Shown here in pieces: positions 888-9,744 of a stretch of 9,744 nt of DNA. Source of the DNA: a virus. Lineage: Duplodnaviria > Heunggongvirae > Uroviricota > Caudoviricetes. Numbering within the stretch: the stretch's first letter is position 1; each line of letters opens with the position of its first letter. The DNA lies in the IMG/VR virus record IMGVR_UViG_3300026224_000017. One strand, given 5' to 3'. The translations under genes were made by a program, and so were the position numbers. A model generated the notes under the pieces. It worked only from the letters and a program-made list of their open reading frames with translations, did not search any database and had not been told where the DNA came from.

Positions 888-1510
888 TTTTGAATCACCG
901 TTGTTGCATAGGAATAAATAAAAGGGAGTTTTACATATTTCTGGTCAATGGCATCTTTCAGAAAATAGCCTATACCATCGCCATACTCTGGTATCTGAAT
1001 AGAAAAAACGCTGTCCGATACTGTCACACTCACATCAAAAGTGTGCTGCAACGGCGGGTCTATTCCGTTTTTTCCATGAATGAACCGCGCCACACGTCGC
1101 TTTAACCAGTCAATGCAGAAATGCGAACCGTCAGCCTTATAAAAATTCCACGTTAATATTCGTTTGAAATAATCATCAGGTACATACGATGCCTGCCCCG
1201 GAACATAATTCCGCATTGCCGCATAAGGGATTGTATTGTATTCAATGGTATCGTATGCGCCGCGTGCAATAGCCTCCTCGGAAACCTGTAGTAAAGGCCT
1301 TTCAACGCCATAAATCCCGAGTGCAATCCAGTCCAGCAATTGCCCGGTTATTGATTCCGATGTCCAGCATGGCAATGCCAGATTGTTGAGTGAATCGAGG
1401 TATTCCTGAGCAATTTCATTGTATGCATCAAAGAACGCAACAACATTCGGATCATCTCTGTACTGCACAAATGGATAAGCAGGGAGAATTTTCTCAGTCA
1501 GATATTGCAT
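884..1510 (-). CDS. Baseplate wedge/tail protein, P2 gpI / Mu gp48-like (DUF2313-type), ~208 aa
   Basis: The six-frame ORF is 884-1618, but its first ATG would overlap the upstream gene by 125 nt. The internal ATG at 1510 (MQYLTEKILPAYPF...) has an AGGT about 8 nt upstream and overlaps the J-like stop by only 17 nt. Size, N-terminal pattern and position after J fit the I/gp48 family. Its stop overlaps the fiber start. Confidence 0.55.
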   Translation of the reverse strand: MQYLTEKILPAYPFVQYRDDPNVVAFFDAYNEIAQEYLDSLNNLALPCWTSESITGQLLDWIALGIYGVERPLLQVSEEAIARGAYDTIEYNTIPYAAMRNYVPGQASYVPDDYFKRILTWNFYKADGSHFCIDWLKRRVARFIHGKNGIDPPLQHTFDVSVTVSDSVFSIQIPEYGDGIGYFLKDAIDQKYVKLPFIYSYATTVIQK

Positions 1511-2720
1511 ACTTGTTGACCTGAACCTGTGATGCCACCGTTGAAAAATAGGAATAGGTATCGCCATAAACCAGGCTTGTGTCTTTCGCCGGAAGAACAA
1601 TATGGCCGTTAATACCAATGCTCACACTGATTGTTGAGATCAACGTCGCATCAACCAGCAACCTGACGGAACTGGTAAAAATATCCTGGATACGCAGAAG
1701 ATTTATCGGGTGTCCGACTTCAATTGAATTGATGTAATCAGCAACGTTTTGCTGCACAGCCATAGCAATACCCGCCGGATCAACATAATCATCAGACACC
1801 GTGTTCCAGGTGATTAGCACCATGACGTTTTGTGATGACGGGATAACGAACGGCACCTGATAAACGTCCGGTGAAACGGTTATTGAAACCGTGCGTTTTT
1901 CCACTGCCGCACCGGATGGATTGCTAACATCGTTGGTCAGTTTCGAAATATCCGGTACAGATTTGTAAATCGCATAAGCCACATCATACGGATCACCGCC
2001 ACCAACAACCGCAACCCATTTCCCCAGCGACGACTGCCGGAAAGAAATCAGGTTTTCTCGCACACCGCTTACTGATTTGAGCATCGCTTTAAAGCAATCC
2101 GGTGTTCCCTGCACACCAAACATGCCGGACTCCATAACTTCGGCGCGATATGATGCCCATGTCTGCGCCTCCTGACCGGGCATACCTGCGGTAAGGTTCG
2201 TGCATTTTACAGGCTGGTCTTTGGGTACTGATGTAATGACCTGCGTTACAGTCCCTTCCGGTACAGCCCATGAGCCTGACGTTGTGGCCACACAGTAGAC
2301 TGGCTCAGTCTGCCCGCTTTCCGGTACCACCGTATCGCGGGAAACCGCATACTGGTAGTTACCATCTCCAACCACAAATCCTTTAGGGATACCAAACCCC
2401 GGCAACGCCTCAAACACCACGTATACCGCCGTATTTGTACTTAATCCCTTCTGTGCTCCATAAATGTTTCCGAGTTGCATCAGTAACGGAATATTTGCGC
2501 CGTATGGGCTTACGGAGTTAATAAGGTCCACCCGCGCCTGGTCTATTAATGCCAGCGCCCCGACTGCCGTGCTGGCAAGGTCTGTAATAAGTCCCGCAGG
2601 AAGGTTGGCTGTATATCCAGGTACTTTTTCAGCAACTCTGGTGATAAGATTTGCGAGCAAATCATTGGGTGGCGTAGGCTGCGCACCCGCACTGGTCATA
2701 GTAATTGGTATTTCTGACAT
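1494..2720 (-). CDS. Baseplate J-like protein (P2 gpJ / Mu gp47 / T4 gp6 family), 408 aa
   Basis: 408-aa ORF. The N-terminal third (NDLLANLITRVAEKVPGY ... ANIPLLMQLGNIYGAQKG ... PGFGIPKGFVVGDG) follows the conserved pattern of baseplate J family proteins. It is followed by an I-like gene and a fiber gene. No Shine-Dalgarno is visible upstream of the ATG at 2720. Confidence 0.65.
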   Translation of the reverse strand: MSEIPITMTSAGAQPTPPNDLLANLITRVAEKVPGYTANLPAGLITDLASTAVGALALIDQARVDLINSVSPYGANIPLLMQLGNIYGAQKGLSTNTAVYVVFEALPGFGIPKGFVVGDGNYQYAVSRDTVVPESGQTEPVYCVATTSGSWAVPEGTVTQVITSVPKDQPVKCTNLTAGMPGQEAQTWASYRAEVMESGMFGVQGTPDCFKAMLKSVSGVRENLISFRQSSLGKWVAVVGGGDPYDVAYAIYKSVPDISKLTNDVSNPSGAAVEKRTVSITVSPDVYQVPFVIPSSQNVMVLITWNTVSDDYVDPAGIAMAVQQNVADYINSIEVGHPINLLRIQDIFTSSVRLLVDATLISTISVSIGINGHIVLPAKDTSLVYGDTYSYFSTVASQVQVNKYAISD

Positions 2721-2757: not shown

Positions 2758-3234
2758 ATGCGGTTCTATTTCAACAAAAAAGGTCTTTCTGGTATTTCTG
2801 TATCAAGCGGAAGGAGTAGTGGTGGCTGTGGAACATTAATTGGAGTTGTCTTTATACTTTATTTAATTGGCCATTTTTCATCACCTTCCGATGAAGATAT
2901 TAAAAATGAATCATCATCTTATAAGACAGCAGTCGTTAAAAGCGACAAAATAATTTCCGAAATCTGCGATCAGTTTAGCACTGATGATTCCGCAAAAATA
3001 TTTTTTAATTCAAATCTAAACAAACATTGGTATAAAACAAAAGTTAAAGTAAATTCACTATCAGATCAAAGATTATCTGCGATTGATTTCAAAAATCCAG
3101 AATTAAAGTATGAAATAAGAATGTCTGATTCAAGACCATTAAGAGTAGGGGATATTATTTCCGTTGAATTTGTACCTACTGAATTCAGTAAGTATTCATG
3201 CGAAATCAGTGGCACAATAGGTAAGTACAAGTAA
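2758..3234 (+). CDS. Hypothetical membrane-anchored protein (single N-terminal transmembrane helix, ~120-aa C-terminal domain), 158 aa
   Basis: Strong RBS AAGGAG 5 nt before the ATG. A basic N-terminus is followed by a hydrophobic helix (TLIGVVFILYLIGHF) and then a K/S/D-rich domain. The gene is very AT-rich (sampled stretches about 20-35 percent GC) and ends 4 nt before an intrinsic terminator. No recognisable family by eye. Confidence 0.6.
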   Translation: MRFYFNKKGLSGISVSSGRSSGGCGTLIGVVFILYLIGHFSSPSDEDIKNESSSYKTAVVKSDKIISEICDQFSTDDSAKIFFNSNLNKHWYKTKVKVNSLSDQRLSAIDFKNPELKYEIRMSDSRPLRVGDIISVEFVPTEFSKYSCEISGTIGKYK

Positions 3235-3238
3235 CCTC

Positions 3239-3272
3239 AAAAAAAACAGCCCGCTGAACGCGGGCTGTTTTT
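3239..3272. terminator. Bidirectional rho-independent terminator shared by convergent genes 2758-3234 and 3271-3660
   Basis: A-run 3239-3246, 8-bp GC-rich stem cagcccgc (3247-3254) / gcgggctg (3260-3267), 5-nt loop, T-run 3268-3272. The A-run/T-run flanks make it functional in both orientations. Confidence 0.75.
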
Positions 3273-3660
3273 AATATACGCCACGAATAAGATCTTGGGT
3301 AAAAACATCACATCCTTCGCTACCTAATTGCAGTCTTTTCTTAAAGTACTCAATAATACCGTCATTATGAACGCCATTTTTGGAAATTTTTAACCACGTA
3401 TTGCTCCATTCTATACTTTGGAGTTTTGTTAAAGCCGCTTTTTCATTTCCTTCACTAACCAAGCGACACGATTCTGATAGTTGATCAGTTACAATCATTT
3501 CATTTCTCATATGCTGAAGCAATTGTCGCTGTTCTTCGCTTAAAGTAACATCTTGATTAGTAATGAGTCTTTCTGATTTTTCAATTGGCGTACCAATCGC
3601 ACACCAAGAGACGAATAAAATTGTAAATAAAGGGAGTGTAATTTTTATACTGACCGACAT
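3271..3660 (-). CDS. Hypothetical secreted/periplasmic protein with N-terminal signal sequence and two cysteines in the mature part, 129 aa
   Basis: ATG at 3660 is preceded by GAGG with a 5-nt spacer; the GTG at 3666 suggested by the ORF track sits inside that Shine-Dalgarno. The N-terminus MSVSIKITLPLFTILFVSWCAIG has n, h and c regions of a Sec signal peptide. AT-rich (about 33 percent GC in a sample). The stop overlaps the terminator T-run. Confidence 0.6.
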   Translation of the reverse strand: MSVSIKITLPLFTILFVSWCAIGTPIEKSERLITNQDVTLSEEQRQLLQHMRNEMIVTDQLSESCRLVSEGNEKAALTKLQSIEWSNTWLKISKNGVHNDGIIEYFKKRLQLGSEGCDVFTQDLIRGVY

Positions 3661-3689
3661 AATCACCTCATTATCAAATGTTCATGCGG

Positions 3690-3717
3690 ATTTTATCAAC
3701 GGTTTCCCTCTATTCAA
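3690..3717 (-). promoter_or_regulatory. Candidate sigma70 promoter for gene 3271-3660
   Basis: On the minus strand: -35 TTGAAT (3717-3712), 16-bp spacer, -10 TAAAAT (3695-3690). Predicted start near 3683, about 23 nt upstream of the ATG. Found by eye only. Confidence 0.35.
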
Positions 3718-3724
3718 ATCAGAC

Positions 3725-3752
3725 TTTACATCCATGAGCTATTGAGTATGAT
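3725..3752 (+). promoter_or_regulatory. Candidate sigma70 promoter for the antirepressor-like gene, back to back with the minus-strand promoter
   Basis: -35 TTTACA (3725-3730), 16-bp spacer, -10 TATGAT (3747-3752). The two -35 elements are 8 bp apart, a typical divergent promoter layout. Found by eye only. Confidence 0.35.
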
Positions 3753-3979
3753 TATGCGCATGAGGCGTCGAAACCTCTTTCACGCGGCCTAGACCAACCC
3801 CGTCAGTGTTGGATTTTTTATGCCTACAATTCAGTGATGGCACAATGTGCGGTCACATCCCCGATCAATGTCGGGAGGGCGACGAATACAACACCCGAAA
3901 GGGAAATAAGTCCGCGGTTTCGTGAAGCCGTTTCGAACCTCCTGGCACCACAATTTCGAAAAAATTTCACGAGGTTTCT

Positions 3980-4537
3980 ATGACCAGCCAATTAATTCCC
4001 GTATTCAACGGCATTGTTTCAAACGAAACTACCCTTCTCTGCAACGCTCGCGATCTGCACACCTTTCTCGAAGTAGGTAAACGCTTTGCTACTTGGATCA
4101 CCGAGCGAATCGGCGAGTATGAATTCATAGAAAATCAGGACTACATAGCTATTTCCCAAAAACGGGAAATAGGTCACGGACGAGGGAAAAAGGACTACCA
4201 CCTCACCCTGGACACCGCCAAAGAACTGGCAATGGTCGAGCGCAACGAAAAAGGCCGCCAGATCCGCCGATACTTCATCGAGTGCGAGAAGAAGCTGCGC
4301 GAGGATACCACCAGCACACAATCCCCTCTGAATGTTGACATCATCATGCGCGTCAGAAACGGCTCGGTTACCCACATTGAGCACCACAAATCAGGCTCAG
4401 TTATAACCACAGAATGGGCAATTCACTTACTACGCAAAAGTGGATGGATTGTCATGCCACGCGATGAACTTCTTAACACGCCACTGGCCCAACTGATGCC
4501 CGAAAATTTGACTCAAACCGGAACCTGCGTCCGGTAA
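3980..4537 (+). CDS. Phage antirepressor-like protein (AntA/AntB-type N-terminal domain), 185 aa
   Basis: GAGG 5 nt before the ATG. The N-terminus (LIPVFNG ... ARDLHTFLEVGKRFATWITERIGEYEFIENQDY) and central segment (LTLDTAKELAMVERNEKGRQIRRYFIECEKKL) match the pattern I associate with AntA/AntB antirepressor proteins. The C-terminal ~70 aa are not recognisable. Confidence 0.6.
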   Translation: MTSQLIPVFNGIVSNETTLLCNARDLHTFLEVGKRFATWITERIGEYEFIENQDYIAISQKREIGHGRGKKDYHLTLDTAKELAMVERNEKGRQIRRYFIECEKKLREDTTSTQSPLNVDIIMRVRNGSVTHIEHHKSGSVITTEWAIHLLRKSGWIVMPRDELLNTPLAQLMPENLTQTGTCVR

Positions 4538-4860
4538 CTGGTCCCATTAAAAAACACAACATCGATGTTATAGGTGGGGTTCTCTGCCCCATCTACCTTT
4601 GAAATTGCCAGCGATGCAAAATACCCGGCAAACTGTTGCTGAACCATGTTCACATAGTAGTCCGGGTAAATTTGCTGCACGATGCACTGCTGCGCTGGAA
4701 TGCCGTAATTCGCGTAAAACGGCGACTCCCCCAACCCCAGCTTTAACGTCTGAATGAGCGTCGTCAGCCAGCCGTAGGAGAAATCACCGCTGGCGTCAGA
4801 TTCTACAGCAACCCATTTTTTGTTGCCGTTCGCGTCGGTGACGCGGCCCCATGTTCTCAT
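4513..4860 (-). CDS. Baseplate wedge protein, gp25 / P2 gpW-like, 115 aa
   Basis: Contains GESPFYANYG, which fits the G-x-x-P-F-x-x-x-[FY]-G core of gp25/W proteins (compare T4 gp25 GSRPFDPEFG). Size matches P2 gpW (115 aa). It lies between the spike and J genes. Its ATG is 3 nt after the stop of the preceding small ORF. Confidence 0.5.
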   Translation of the reverse strand: MRTWGRVTDANGNKKWVAVESDASGDFSYGWLTTLIQTLKLGLGESPFYANYGIPAQQCIVQQIYPDYYVNMVQQQFAGYFASLAISKVDGAENPTYNIDVVFFNGTSYRTQVPV

Positions 4861-4863
4861 GCG

Positions 4864-5028
4864 TCAACCTTTCAAGTAAATTAGGGTACCGGTAGCCAGA
4901 GCGGTACAAATGATCCACGCTACTGGAGTCAGAATATGCCGAATACCCTGACATACTGCGATTATTCTCGCAGCCTTATCAGCTCCTTGTGGGGTTGTCT
5001 CAGCCTTAAGAATCAGTTCGCTATCCAT
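4864..5028 (-). CDS. Hypothetical small protein with C-terminal transmembrane helix, 54 aa
   Basis: Translation verified by hand: MDSELILKAETTPQGADKAARIIAVCQGIRHILTPVAWIICTALATGTLIYLKG. Its ATG overlaps the stop of the upstream small ORF (ATGGATAG), and its TGA is 3 nt before the W-like ATG. Not in the ORF track, presumably because it is under the length cutoff. Confidence 0.35.
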   Translation of the reverse strand: MDSELILKAETTPQGADKAARIIAVCQGIRHILTPVAWIICTALATGTLIYLKG

Positions 5029-5188
5029 TTAGAACCTTTATGATCTCTGCGATTCCCGGAAGCGATTTAGCAACTGCAAACCCTCCGATAACTATAAGAA
5101 CTGCATAAAACATTCTTCTCAGAACCGGACTTCTTTCGAGCAATTTTAGAGCTTCCACAATCCAGTCTCCTCCGCTAAAATTAATCAC
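5021..5188 (-). CDS. Hypothetical small membrane peptide (single hydrophobic helix), 55 aa from GTG or 30 aa from the internal ATG
   Basis: GTG at 5188 is preceded by GGAGG (5199-5195) with a 6-nt spacer. Translation: VINFSGGDWIVEALKLLERSPVLRRMFYAVLIVIGGFAVAKSLPGIAEIIKVLNG. It lies downstream of the hairpin at 5244-5275 and is coupled to the next ORF. Confidence 0.35.
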   Translation of the reverse strand: MINFSGGDWIVEALKLLERSPVLRRMFYAVLIVIGGFAVAKSLPGIAEIIKVLNG

Positions 5189-5243
5189 GGAAGACCTCCA
5201 AACATACGTAATTATCCCTTGCCTTATTCAAGGTCAGAAACAG

Positions 5244-5275
5244 AAAGCCCCGACTGTTTGCCCAGTCGGGGCTTT
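5244..5275. terminator. Strong GC-rich stem-loop (terminator- or attenuator-like) just downstream of the spike gene
   Basis: 13-bp perfect inverted repeat aaagccccgactg (5244-5256) / cagtcggggcttt (5263-5275) with a 6-nt loop. Flanking sequence is moderately T-rich on both strands. It sits about 38 nt after the stop of the 5314-6027 gene. Confidence 0.5.
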
Positions 5276-5313
5276 CGCTTTATGGATAGAATTTAAAGTG
5301 AAATGAACCGGTA

Positions 5314-6027
5314 TTAACCCGGATTTGGTTTCTTTGACGTGATCGTGCTGTTGCCGCTTTGAACCCCAGTCACATCGTGGCTGTGACCGCTGGCGCTGAC
5401 ACCTTTTATCATCGCGTCGTTTTGCACAGTAAGCGGGCCAATCAGCGAAGCGGTTGTATCCTTCATCTGGGCTTTGTCCTGGACGATCGGTCCGTTGAGG
5501 TGAATTTTCCCGTTCAGGAAAATATCTTCGGCCTCGAGGTAAACAGCTTTCGACTTTTGCCTGATTTCTTCCGGTGCCACCGTTACCGAGCTACTGCCGT
5601 CCTCTGTTTTGAGGATCGCGCCATCCGGACCGTACAAAACGATCTTTTGCGGATCTTCGTCGGACCAGTCCTTGTTTGCCAGTGGCACGAAAAACAGTGG
5701 AGTGAGCGACATCGAGTAAGAGAGCGTCGCCATACCGGTTCCCAATCCGGACACACCGCGCAGGGATACATCAGCGGCAATTGTTACTCCTCGATCGCCC
5801 GGCTGTATCGGGTAACGAATATACGGGAATGTGGCGACAGGGATTGTTATCTGCGGAAAGTTGATCCCCTCCGGCAGCATATCAAACTGAACTGTCACTA
5901 TCTGCCCGCTGACACCGACAACATGGCAGGGCAATTCACGACCTTTAAGCTCGGCTTGCTGGTTACCAGAACTGGTCATCATCTCCGACAGCGTTCGGAG
6001 AAACGGTAATTTTTGAGCGTTTGACAT
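5314..6027 (-). CDS. Baseplate spike protein, P2 gpV / Mu gp45-like, 237 aa
   Basis: Size and position match. The C-terminal region has a His-containing apex-like motif (GHSHDVTGVQSG) and a Gly/Ser/Thr-rich beta-type sequence, as in gpV-type spikes. Its start overlaps the stop of the upstream hub-position gene. Confidence 0.6.
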   Translation of the reverse strand: MSNAQKLPFLRTLSEMMTSSGNQQAELKGRELPCHVVGVSGQIVTVQFDMLPEGINFPQITIPVATFPYIRYPIQPGDRGVTIAADVSLRGVSGLGTGMATLSYSMSLTPLFFVPLANKDWSDEDPQKIVLYGPDGAILKTEDGSSSVTVAPEEIRQKSKAVYLEAEDIFLNGKIHLNGPIVQDKAQMKDTTASLIGPLTVQNDAMIKGVSASGHSHDVTGVQSGNSTITSKKPNPG

Positions 6028-7968: not shown

Positions 7969-9441
7969 TTACCCCGGTATTTGTTGCGTTCCGGCGAGTT
8001 GTGCCAGTATGTCGGAACCCGGCGATTGTCGCACCTGAAGCTCAATTATTGCGCGGGCATTTTTGCCAGCACCCTGAAGATTATCTCTGGCATTTCTTAG
8101 CTGATTCATAATACCAGGGTGTTGATCCAGGGCTCCCTGAATCTGAGGCAATAATTTAATTAAATATTTTACAGTCTCCATTCTCAAACTTAGATTTCCA
8201 TCTCTATCAATACGACCTCCGTTATATGCCGTAAGCATTTTTGCCACATCGCCTTTATAACGCCGATTCAGATCATTTAAAAAGCGGCCAGCCGCAAGAG
8301 TGGATTTATTTGGGTCATAAACATCATCACCCACCAGACCATACTGTTTTGCGGTGCTATCCCAGAATTGCCACAACCCCTTAGCGAATCTACCTTTTTC
8401 ATCAGGAGTTCCTCTTGCCAGAGGATTCCACGAAGATTCAACTTCTGCGATAGCTGACATCATATTTTTAGGAAGTCGATAAGTATTATTGGCTTGCTCT
8501 ACAAAGTTCTGAATATTTCTCTTTAAATCATTAGGCATACGGTAATTTTTATATACATCATCCTGTTTATAAAACTCACCCGTATACTGATTTGTCATCG
8601 GGTTTGCTCCCGGCAACGCACCACCGAGATATTTATTTCCAAATGCCGCAAGAACTGGATCTGCCTGTTCAGCACCAACTCCGGTTCCGGGGAGATATTT
8701 ATCTTCCCCACCGATCCATTTGATAGCTGACCATATTGCTTTTGCAATCCGGCTCACCGCCAGAGAAAAATCGTCAAGATCATTTTTAAATTGTTCGCTA
8801 TTCAGCCACTTACCAAGTTTCTCCAGCCCTTCGCCAGCCTCAGCGAGAATTTTCTGAAAATTTCCACCATTCAGAAAACCTTCAATATTGGATGTCAGCC
8901 CATCAGATGCACCTGTGATTAGTGGGTTATATCTGGCGAGAGCTGCATACCAGGAATTTGATATTCTGTTTCCATTTACCATCAGGTTACTCACCGTATC
9001 CTGATAACCTGACTGCATAGCTGGCGTGAGGTAAGCACCGAGCAACCTAGTATTTGATGCAAATTTCTCGTTCAGTTGGGGGATCTTGTCCAGATTCGCT
9101 TCCACCTGGTTAGTTGTCGCGACATCAACAAATCCAAGCCCTTGTCCGTTGAGAATCCCCTGAGTAAGTCCTGAACCTTTATATTGCTTAACGAGAGATG
9201 CAAGCGCGCTCATAAGTTTGGGCAGATTCTTTGCTGCACCATCTCGAGGATCAATTCCAAGACTGACCAGACCAGCATAGTTTGGATCATTTGGATTTTT
9301 CTGTGCGTTCGCCAGATGCTGAACCAGTTCTTCTGTGCCAGAAAAATATGGCGAATAGGTGGCACGTGCGGCCTGCATCTGTGCGGTTTCCATACCCAGC
9401 CCCTGAGCCACGCTGTATTGCGCTGCAACCTTGCTCGCCAT
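7969..9441 (-). CDS. Tail-associated protein with lytic transglycosylase (SLT) domain, probably tape measure or tail lysin; at least 490 aa
   Basis: Clear SLT catalytic region AIAEVESSWNP ... GLWQFWDSTA ... TAYNGG (approximately 8200-8480), verified by back-translation. The first ATG is at 9441, but the same frame stays open upstream to 9651 (about 70 more codons) with no canonical start codon. Confidence 0.7.
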   Translation of the reverse strand: MASKVAAQYSVAQGLGMETAQMQAARATYSPYFSGTEELVQHLANAQKNPNDPNYAGLVSLGIDPRDGAAKNLPKLMSALASLVKQYKGSGLTQGILNGQGLGFVDVATTNQVEANLDKIPQLNEKFASNTRLLGAYLTPAMQSGYQDTVSNLMVNGNRISNSWYAALARYNPLITGASDGLTSNIEGFLNGGNFQKILAEAGEGLEKLGKWLNSEQFKNDLDDFSLAVSRIAKAIWSAIKWIGGEDKYLPGTGVGAEQADPVLAAFGNKYLGGALPGANPMTNQYTGEFYKQDDVYKNYRMPNDLKRNIQNFVEQANNTYRLPKNMMSAIAEVESSWNPLARGTPDEKGRFAKGLWQFWDSTAKQYGLVGDDVYDPNKSTLAAGRFLNDLNRRYKGDVAKMLTAYNGGRIDRDGNLSLRMETVKYLIKLLPQIQGALDQHPGIMNQLRNARDNLQGAGKNARAIIELQVRQSPGSDILAQLAGTQQIPG

Positions 9442-9666
9442 ATATCCGTACCCGAAAGCACCGACCGAACCAAGCGCCGCAATTTTGCTCCCCCAGGATA
9501 CAGTCGTTTTAAACAGCGTTTTCAGTCGTGAATTGGTCGTTTTAAGCGTTGAATTGATCTGCTTGTAAGTTTTCAGCGTCCCCTGAGCGTTTTTACCCAG
9601 ACTACTGAGATACTTATCAAATGAACCGCCCCGGGTTTCCTGGAGAGTGTTTTATCTGTGAACTCA

Positions 9667-9744
9667 GGCTGCCAGATCAGTATTTCCGATGGAAGCATAA
9701 TAAGCTTTTTCTGCTTCTGCCGGAGGAATATGGCCCAGCCTTTC
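9667..9744 (-). CDS. C-terminal end of an upstream tail-module gene (partial; start lies beyond the right edge)
   Basis: Open frame from the window edge ending ...AEKAYYASIGNTDLAA at TGA (9666-9664), followed in the same frame by a second stop TAA (9654-9652). Identity unknown; tape measure N-part or tail chaperone are the candidates. Confidence 0.35.

Follow-up and report, generated by a model that had tools for sequence, protein, structure and literature searches.

The window, which is the whole 9,744-nt stretch of viral DNA that was analyzed, raises the question of how a long reading frame can stand open without any place to start. On the minus strand, an ORF of 490 aa with an SLT lytic transglycosylase domain is bounded by an ATG at 9441 and a stop at 7969, and a preliminary description reported that the same frame continues upstream, without a start codon, as far as two in-frame stops. 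Translation places both stops where they had been claimed to be, the TGA at 9666-9664 and the TAA at 9654-9652, and a codon scan confirms that the 70 open codons of the minus strand from 9651 to 9442 include no ATG, GTG or TTG. The only near-cognate codons in this interval are CTG at 9600, 9576, 9525, and 9516, ATC at 9558, and ATT at 9483. In the frame of the 490-aa ORF, the region reads ...NTDLAA-stop-VHR-stop-NTLQETRGGSFDKYLSSLGKNAQGTLKTYKQINSTLKTTNSRLKTLFKTTVSWGSKIAALGSVGAFGYGY-MASK.... It had been proposed that a non-canonical start, the splitting of a tape measure gene by nonsense mutation, or a sequencing error could explain such an arrangement.

A megablast search with the minus strand from 9744 to 9000 reveals a sharp break in homology at 9622/9621, inside the reported interval of 9442-9666: bases 1-123 of the query are insertion sequence (IS) and bases 124-745 are tail gene. 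All of the matches to tail genes begin at one base, window position 9621, a result that holds when the whole window is used as the query, and homology to copies of the IS stops exactly at 9622. On the tail-gene side, 9621-9000 matches a gene called 'lytic transglycosylase' in Rac-SA53 (99.2%) and in 29 E. coli prophages (up to 100%). Alignment with the intact genes of ETEC6335 and Rac-SA53 gives the same breakpoint, with perfect identity to ETEC6335 from TTTGATAAG (9621) onward and none upstream. These results suggest that, very probably, an IS629-type element lies between codons 112 and 113 of the tape-measure-position SLT gene, in an E. coli prophage that is Rac-SA53-like and contractile-tailed; neither a non-canonical start nor a nonsense mutation nor a sequencing error is needed to explain the start-less frame. 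The features of the locus are as follows.

Positions 9622 to 9744, minus strand: right (3') end of an IS629-type element of the IS3 family, identified by nucleotide matches; the window ends inside it.
Positions 9664 to 9744, minus strand: last 26 codons of the transposase OrfB, ERLGHIPPAEAEKAYYASIGNTDLAA, and the TGA at 9666-9664, from translation; the C-terminus is the same in the OrfB of E. coli HUE1.
Positions 9622 to 9646, minus strand: 25-bp terminal inverted repeat (IRR), TCTCCAGGAAACCCGGGGCGGTTCA, ending ...GGTTCA, from comparison of left (IRL) and right repeats.
Positions 9621 to 9622, no strand: breakpoint between the IS and the phage gene, from alignment with intact genes and megablast.
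Positions 7969 to 9621, minus strand: 5'-truncated remnant of the SLT-domain tail gene, codons 113-662 and the stop, identical to ETEC6335 at 1653 of 1653 nt.
Positions 9442 to 9621, minus strand: codons 113-172 of the interrupted tail gene (FDKYL...GYGY), identical to ETEC6335 and Rac-SA53.
Positions 9517 to 9558, minus strand: two-copy, 21-nt imperfect direct repeat, heptad-like, encoding INSTLKT/TNSRLKT, with 76% identity.
Positions 9439 to 9441, minus strand: ATG at which ORF finders begin the 490-aa ORF, corresponding to the internal Met173 of the intact 662-aa protein.
Positions 8209 to 8502, minus strand: SLT lytic transglycosylase domain (PF01464), residues 486-583 of the intact protein and 314-411 of the 490-aa ORF.

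The intact gene, annotated 'transglycosylase SLT domain-containing protein', specifies a product of 662 aa in ETEC6335 (WP_247779618.1), where it occupies 2635137-2637125, and of 657 aa in Rac-SA53 (ALP46865.1). It runs 336 nt further upstream of 9621, in sequence unrelated to the window, to an ATG start, and the break falls between its codons 112 and 113; what is left is the 3' 83% of the gene. This remnant differs from the Rac-SA53 gene at 16 nt, affecting 13 codons synonymously and 3 non-synonymously. The intact protein aligns over its full length with the phage protein family phrog_7694 (1-662 of 675 positions, E=1.7e-271), and consequently the family includes the missing N-terminus. By alignment, the ATG at 9441 is not a natural start but encodes a methionine inside the protein, which ORF callers take by default, and the subtraction of 172 residues from the intact 662 leaves 490, which accounts for the length of the ORF. 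The preliminary description had rightly doubted that the natural start is at 9441 and had named homologues beginning at the equivalent position as counter-evidence; the opposite was found, since the intact homologues begin 172 codons upstream.

Judged from the same alignment, the 70-codon open frame is a composite of 10 codons from the inverted repeat of the IS and 60 codons of internal coding sequence. The first part (9651-9622, NTLQETRGGS) is 30 nt of IS DNA that is open in the frame of the tail gene by chance. The other 180 nt, 9621-9442, differ from the E. coli W allele (90% identical) at 37 nt, with 18 synonymous and 8 non-synonymous codons, and at the protein level are 75% identical to Actinobacillus phage vB_Apl-pPE4; by these comparisons the stretch is genuine coding sequence, as internal codons. 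Thus, the earlier impression of a protein-like frame holds for the 60 codons of 9621-9442 but not for the 10 of IS origin at 9651-9622.

Comparison of the intact alleles also brought out variation within the gene itself. Residues 1-112 of the SLT protein are 92.5% identical between the E. coli prophages and vB_Apl-pPE4, a phage of Actinobacillus pleuropneumoniae, whereas residues 173-662 are only 39.8% identical; the tail protein appears from these figures to be a mosaic, with an N-terminal module exchanged or conserved independently of the rest. The N-terminal part that is missing from the window includes a 15-nt (5-codon) in-frame indel in a Pro/Ala-rich linker (PAPVPAAP; alignment columns 295-309), and ETEC6335 and E. 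coli W have the insert, which Rac-SA53 and the Actinobacillus phage lack. In addition, the record NZ_CP026085.1, labelled E. coli DH5alpha, carries the prophage gene at 90.4% identity, as do E. coli W, LY180, and KO11FL. A K-12 derivative would not be expected to have the gene, and the strain label of this record may be at fault.

The DNA on the other side of the break is that of a common mobile element. The 123 nt of the window from 9744 to 9622 match the OrfB ends of IS629/IS3-family elements in 178 phage records and more than 4000 E. coli genomes (megablast). The IRR (9646-9622) ends in the canonical CA, in keeping with the TG...CA inverted repeats of the IS3 family and the IS629 group, and the in-frame TAA at 9654-9652 lies just inside the 3' end of the IS, 6 nt before this 25-bp repeat. 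The 'upstream gene' and the 'tandem stops' of the preliminary description are both IS629-type DNA, the first being the end of OrfB, with the TGA as its stop codon, and the TAA lying inside the IS. At the end of the contig from which the window comes, these 123 nt and a further 16 nt are identical, at 139 of 139 positions, to complete copies of 1310 bp. In E. coli HUE1, such a complete copy (1310 bp) splits acrR; its IRL, TGAACCGCCCCGGGAATCCTGGAGA, and its IRR, TGAACCGCCCCGGGTTTCCTGGAGA, are complementary at 23 of the 25 first positions, and it is flanked by a 3-bp TAG target duplication. Its transposase is annotated with a programmed frameshift and an AL1L pseudoknot, and its OrfB reaches 315 bits on NF033516 (IS3 family transposase), for which the cut-off is 160; the 26 OrfB codons in the window are identical to the end of this protein, as expected of an IS3-family DDE transposase.

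How closely the element is related to IS629 can be judged by two figures that refer to different lengths of DNA. Over the 123 nt in the window, identity to the annotated IS629 of phage BP-4795 is 98.4%, and a value of 96.2% over 1310 nt applies to the HUE1 copy, that is, to another, complete copy with an identical end. In ISfinder practice, the usual criterion for an isoform is a nucleotide identity of at least 95%. The gene interrupted in HUE1 by the IS with the identical 139-nt end, acrR, encodes the repressor of the AcrAB efflux system. Though unrelated to the window, this insertion shows that the IS variant is active.

The alignments with intact genes bear directly on two of the proposals mentioned above. 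If nonsense mutations (the TGA and the TAA) had split a tape measure gene, the upstream ORF would be its N-terminal half, and the two sides of the stops do share a reading frame. However, the upstream ORF is the C-terminus of an IS3-family OrfB with no similarity to the intact N-terminus, the shared frame of OrfB and the tail gene is a 1-in-3 coincidence, and the remnant, with 0 differences, shows no decay. A nonsense split is therefore refuted by the alignment, and we give it practically no credence. A base-level error of sequencing, in which an indel or substitution destroyed the start or shifted the frame, would account for the absence of a start codon taken by itself, but what the alignment with intact alleles reveals is not a point change: the upstream sequence has been wholly replaced by IS DNA. 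Such an error, too, is contradicted by the alignment and has next to no probability.

The third proposal, that a non-canonical start such as the ATT at 9483 or one of the CTG codons gives a functional, shorter SLT protein, draws on the presence of in-frame CTG, ATC, and ATT codons. In addition, a strong Shine-Dalgarno-like sequence, GGGGGAG, is present 4 nt 5' of the in-frame ATT (9483-9497, minus strand). The same nucleotides, however, are internal codons (SWGSKI) that are identical in the intact alleles of the 662-aa gene, and consequently the region of the ATT did not evolve as a start; the resemblance to a Shine-Dalgarno sequence is for this reason probably coincidental, yet it would be the best candidate if internal initiation happens. 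Furthermore, all homologues begin 172 codons upstream of 9441, and a search of 9300-9744 found no sigma-70-like promoter, including one directed outward from the end of the IS. The ATG at 9441 is itself in a poor ribosome-binding context, with no good Shine-Dalgarno sequence in the 20 nt 5' of it, GTGCTTTCGGGTACGGATAT. As a cause of the start-less frame, a non-canonical start is superfluous, the insertion of the IS being sufficient, and a functional protein made in this way is extremely unlikely.

Several other features of the region were considered. Between 9300 and 9744, the sole terminator-like hairpin is on the plus strand, inside the IRR. An ORF of 41 aa that starts with ATG (9573-9698, minus strand, in another frame) spans the junction between the IS and the gene and was considered as a frameshift partner; it was rejected, since its sequence is that of the IS in every copy, its start lies inside OrfB, and there is no slippery heptamer. 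Rather than a gene, this ORF is a junction artefact. A transmembrane helix in WGSKIAALGSVGAFGYGY was likewise rejected, as the 19-residue Kyte-Doolittle maximum is only 0.99; the sequence is a moderately hydrophobic, Gly-rich segment and not a demonstrated transmembrane helix.

The open frame had also been said to encode repeats of a kind typical of tape measure proteins. Repeats are indeed present, as the 21-nt unit at 9517-9558 (Tandem Repeats Finder: period 21, 1.9 copies, score 57) and as AGCGTTTT, GTTTTCAG, and GTCGTTTTAA, each of which recurs as an 8-10-mer, but they are small, and the unit has two copies only. Among 2000 codon shuffles, 13 had a best 21-nt self-match as good as that observed (16/21), and among 20000 residue shuffles, 2 had three LKT tripeptides; the repeat is thus modestly above chance. 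Extended tandem repeats have been described for some tape measure proteins. The two-copy, heptad-like motif found here is not a repeat of this extended kind.

The case for a tape measure function comes instead from the position of the gene. In the intact relatives, the order is sheath (phrog_205), a 143-aa gene, a 205-aa gene, the 662-aa SLT protein, 222-aa and 88-aa genes, baseplate hub (phrog_196), a baseplate-V-like gene, and a Baseplate_J gene. The SLT gene thus lies between the sheath/tube side and the baseplate hub, as a tape measure gene does, and the module is, by its gene content, that of a contractile tail. The SLT domain itself is secure: the intact protein scores 73.7 bits on PF01464 against a gathering cut-off of 21.3, the domain is also on record for the gene call of the contig, and an E-S motif (AEVESSW) is present in the sequence. 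Of curated tape-measure families, none was matched in Pfam, where only SLT was found, or in NCBIfam, where only transglycosylase families below threshold were found; phrog_7694 is annotated 'unknown function' and phrog_2013 'lytic tail protein'. In the PDB, the closest solved relative by sequence (phmmer) is the tape measure protein gp41 of Pa193 (9B45; E=3e-8). A putative functional analogy with tape measure proteins is well supported by synteny, and it is from gene order only that we infer a role as length ruler. Since no curated family was matched and synteny supports the analogy, the product is called here a tape-measure-position SLT tail protein. The suggestion of a disrupted tape measure gene in a prophage was correct as to the disruption and the tape-measure position, but the cause is an IS, and the tape-measure role is a putative one, by gene order only.

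Elsewhere in the module, the contig and ETEC1716 agree in the lengths of the other tail and baseplate genes. A variable island of small genes, 2758-5300, separates the baseplate-V-like gene (5314-6027, minus strand) from the Baseplate_J gene (1494-2720, minus strand), including a gene of the AntA/AntB antirepressor family on the opposite strand (3980-4537, plus strand). The content at the equivalent of 2758-5300 differs between ETEC6335 and ETEC1716, and the island looks like a moron or accessory slot within the baseplate operon.

The source of the window is a MEGAHIT metagenome contig, ENA ERZ27241745:k141_5382 (9838 bp), which contains all of it and for which the exact 490-aa product is recorded. 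This contig ends 139 nt into the IS; it covers the right junction of the IS alone, and consequently the left junction is not visible. Its terminal 141-mer consists of 139 nt of IS and 2 nt of unique flank, an end that would be expected where a de Bruijn graph with k=141 meets a multicopy repeat, and the IS is probably multicopy in the sample. No genome among 5,426 complete E. coli genomes has both sides of the junction, and there were 0 matches to a 50-mer across the right junction among the GTDB species representatives and 0 to a 31-mer across it among JGI metagenome contigs. These negative results, together with a junction that is only 139 nt away from where a short-read metagenome contig ends, are what a false joining of IS reads to an intact tail gene at the contig end would give. 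Against such an artefact, the break falls, to the base, on the canonical CA at which the inverted repeat ends, as transposition predicts, and a graph with k=141 requires real 141-mers across the junction. The junction is seen on this one metagenome contig; a second contig has been reported with the same truncated gene call of 490 aa. A false join is thus very unlikely, and a genuine insertion of the IS629-type element is the reading followed here.

IS3-family elements transpose by a copy-out/paste-in process and generate duplications of 3-4 bp. If the element in the window arrived in this usual way, a 3-bp duplication of TTT would be predicted, and the 5' 112 codons of the tail gene would be found past the other end of the IS. 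After a simple insertion, the left junction would read ...ACG ATG TTT/TGA ACC..., that is, ...GGCGAAACGATGTTT joined to TGAACCGCCCCGGGAATCC, and translation of an N-terminal fragment would end immediately at the TGA in the IRL. A search of genome contigs for the predicted left junction, with a gap of 0-6 nt allowed, gave 0 matches. A simple insertion and an IS-mediated deletion or rearrangement with loss of the upstream part of the gene would look alike here, given that the contig includes neither the left IS junction nor the first 336 nt of the gene, and that only 21 of 47 IS629 sites in O157 have matching duplications (PMC3271280).

Whichever of these occurred, the event was probably recent, since the remnant has 0 differences from the intact ETEC6335 allele. 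The IS is, as far as gene lengths can tell, the only visible lesion in an otherwise intact tail and baseplate set, no other gene of the set differing in length from its ETEC1716 counterpart. Polymerization of the tail tube needs a tape measure protein for its nucleation. Because such a protein is essential for tail assembly, a split of the tape-measure-position gene would abolish that process, and the prophage would be defective. It is highly improbable that the truncated gene is still alive, either by read-through from the IS and initiation at Met173 or at the ATT at 9483, or with the IS serving as a reversible tail switch. In the first of these cases, an N-terminally truncated, free SLT transglycosylase might be made, with a host-beneficial or regulatory role.

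Taken together, these results matter in practice for how the locus is annotated. What is called as a 490-aa 'SLT protein' is an artefact of ORF callers and should be labelled as a pseudogene fragment beside an IS rather than as a protein with an unusual start. An IS hit in an E. coli prophage gene is an ordinary event, already known in kind, and an IS629-type hit can be regarded as a routine step in the decay and domestication of prophages in E. coli.

The closest known systems are the intact SLT genes of the E. coli prophages ETEC6335 and Rac-SA53. They are followed by the same downstream tail and baseplate genes as in the window, and they differ from it in having codons 1-112 where the window copy has the end of the IS. 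A wider comparison is with tape measure proteins that bear a peptidoglycan-hydrolase domain, such as gp41 of the Pseudomonas myophage Pa193 and Tmp of mycobacteriophage TM4. What is shared with these hydrolase-bearing proteins is great length, a place after the sheath/tube genes and before the hub, and an internal or C-terminal lytic transglycosylase domain. The similarity of Pa193 gp41 to the SLT tail protein is mainly confined to the SLT region; in gp41 the transglycosylase domain is at residues 491-582 (PMC11456595).

The element itself is to be compared with IS629. With about 96% identity in the complete copy that has the identical end, it is probably an isoform and not the BP-4795 reference copy, a comparison in which only 123 nt of the element are in the window and 139 in the contig. 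Among the prophages of E. coli O157:H7, IS629 is the prevalent IS. The features that this complete copy shares with it are a length of 1310 bp, imperfect 25-bp TG...CA inverted repeats, a transposase made by frameshifting, and a 3-bp duplication, IS629 being known to make target duplications of 3-4 bp (PMC3271280). Finally, 62% of IS629 copies are found in prophages, and the element in the window, like most of them, sits in a prophage (PMC3271280).
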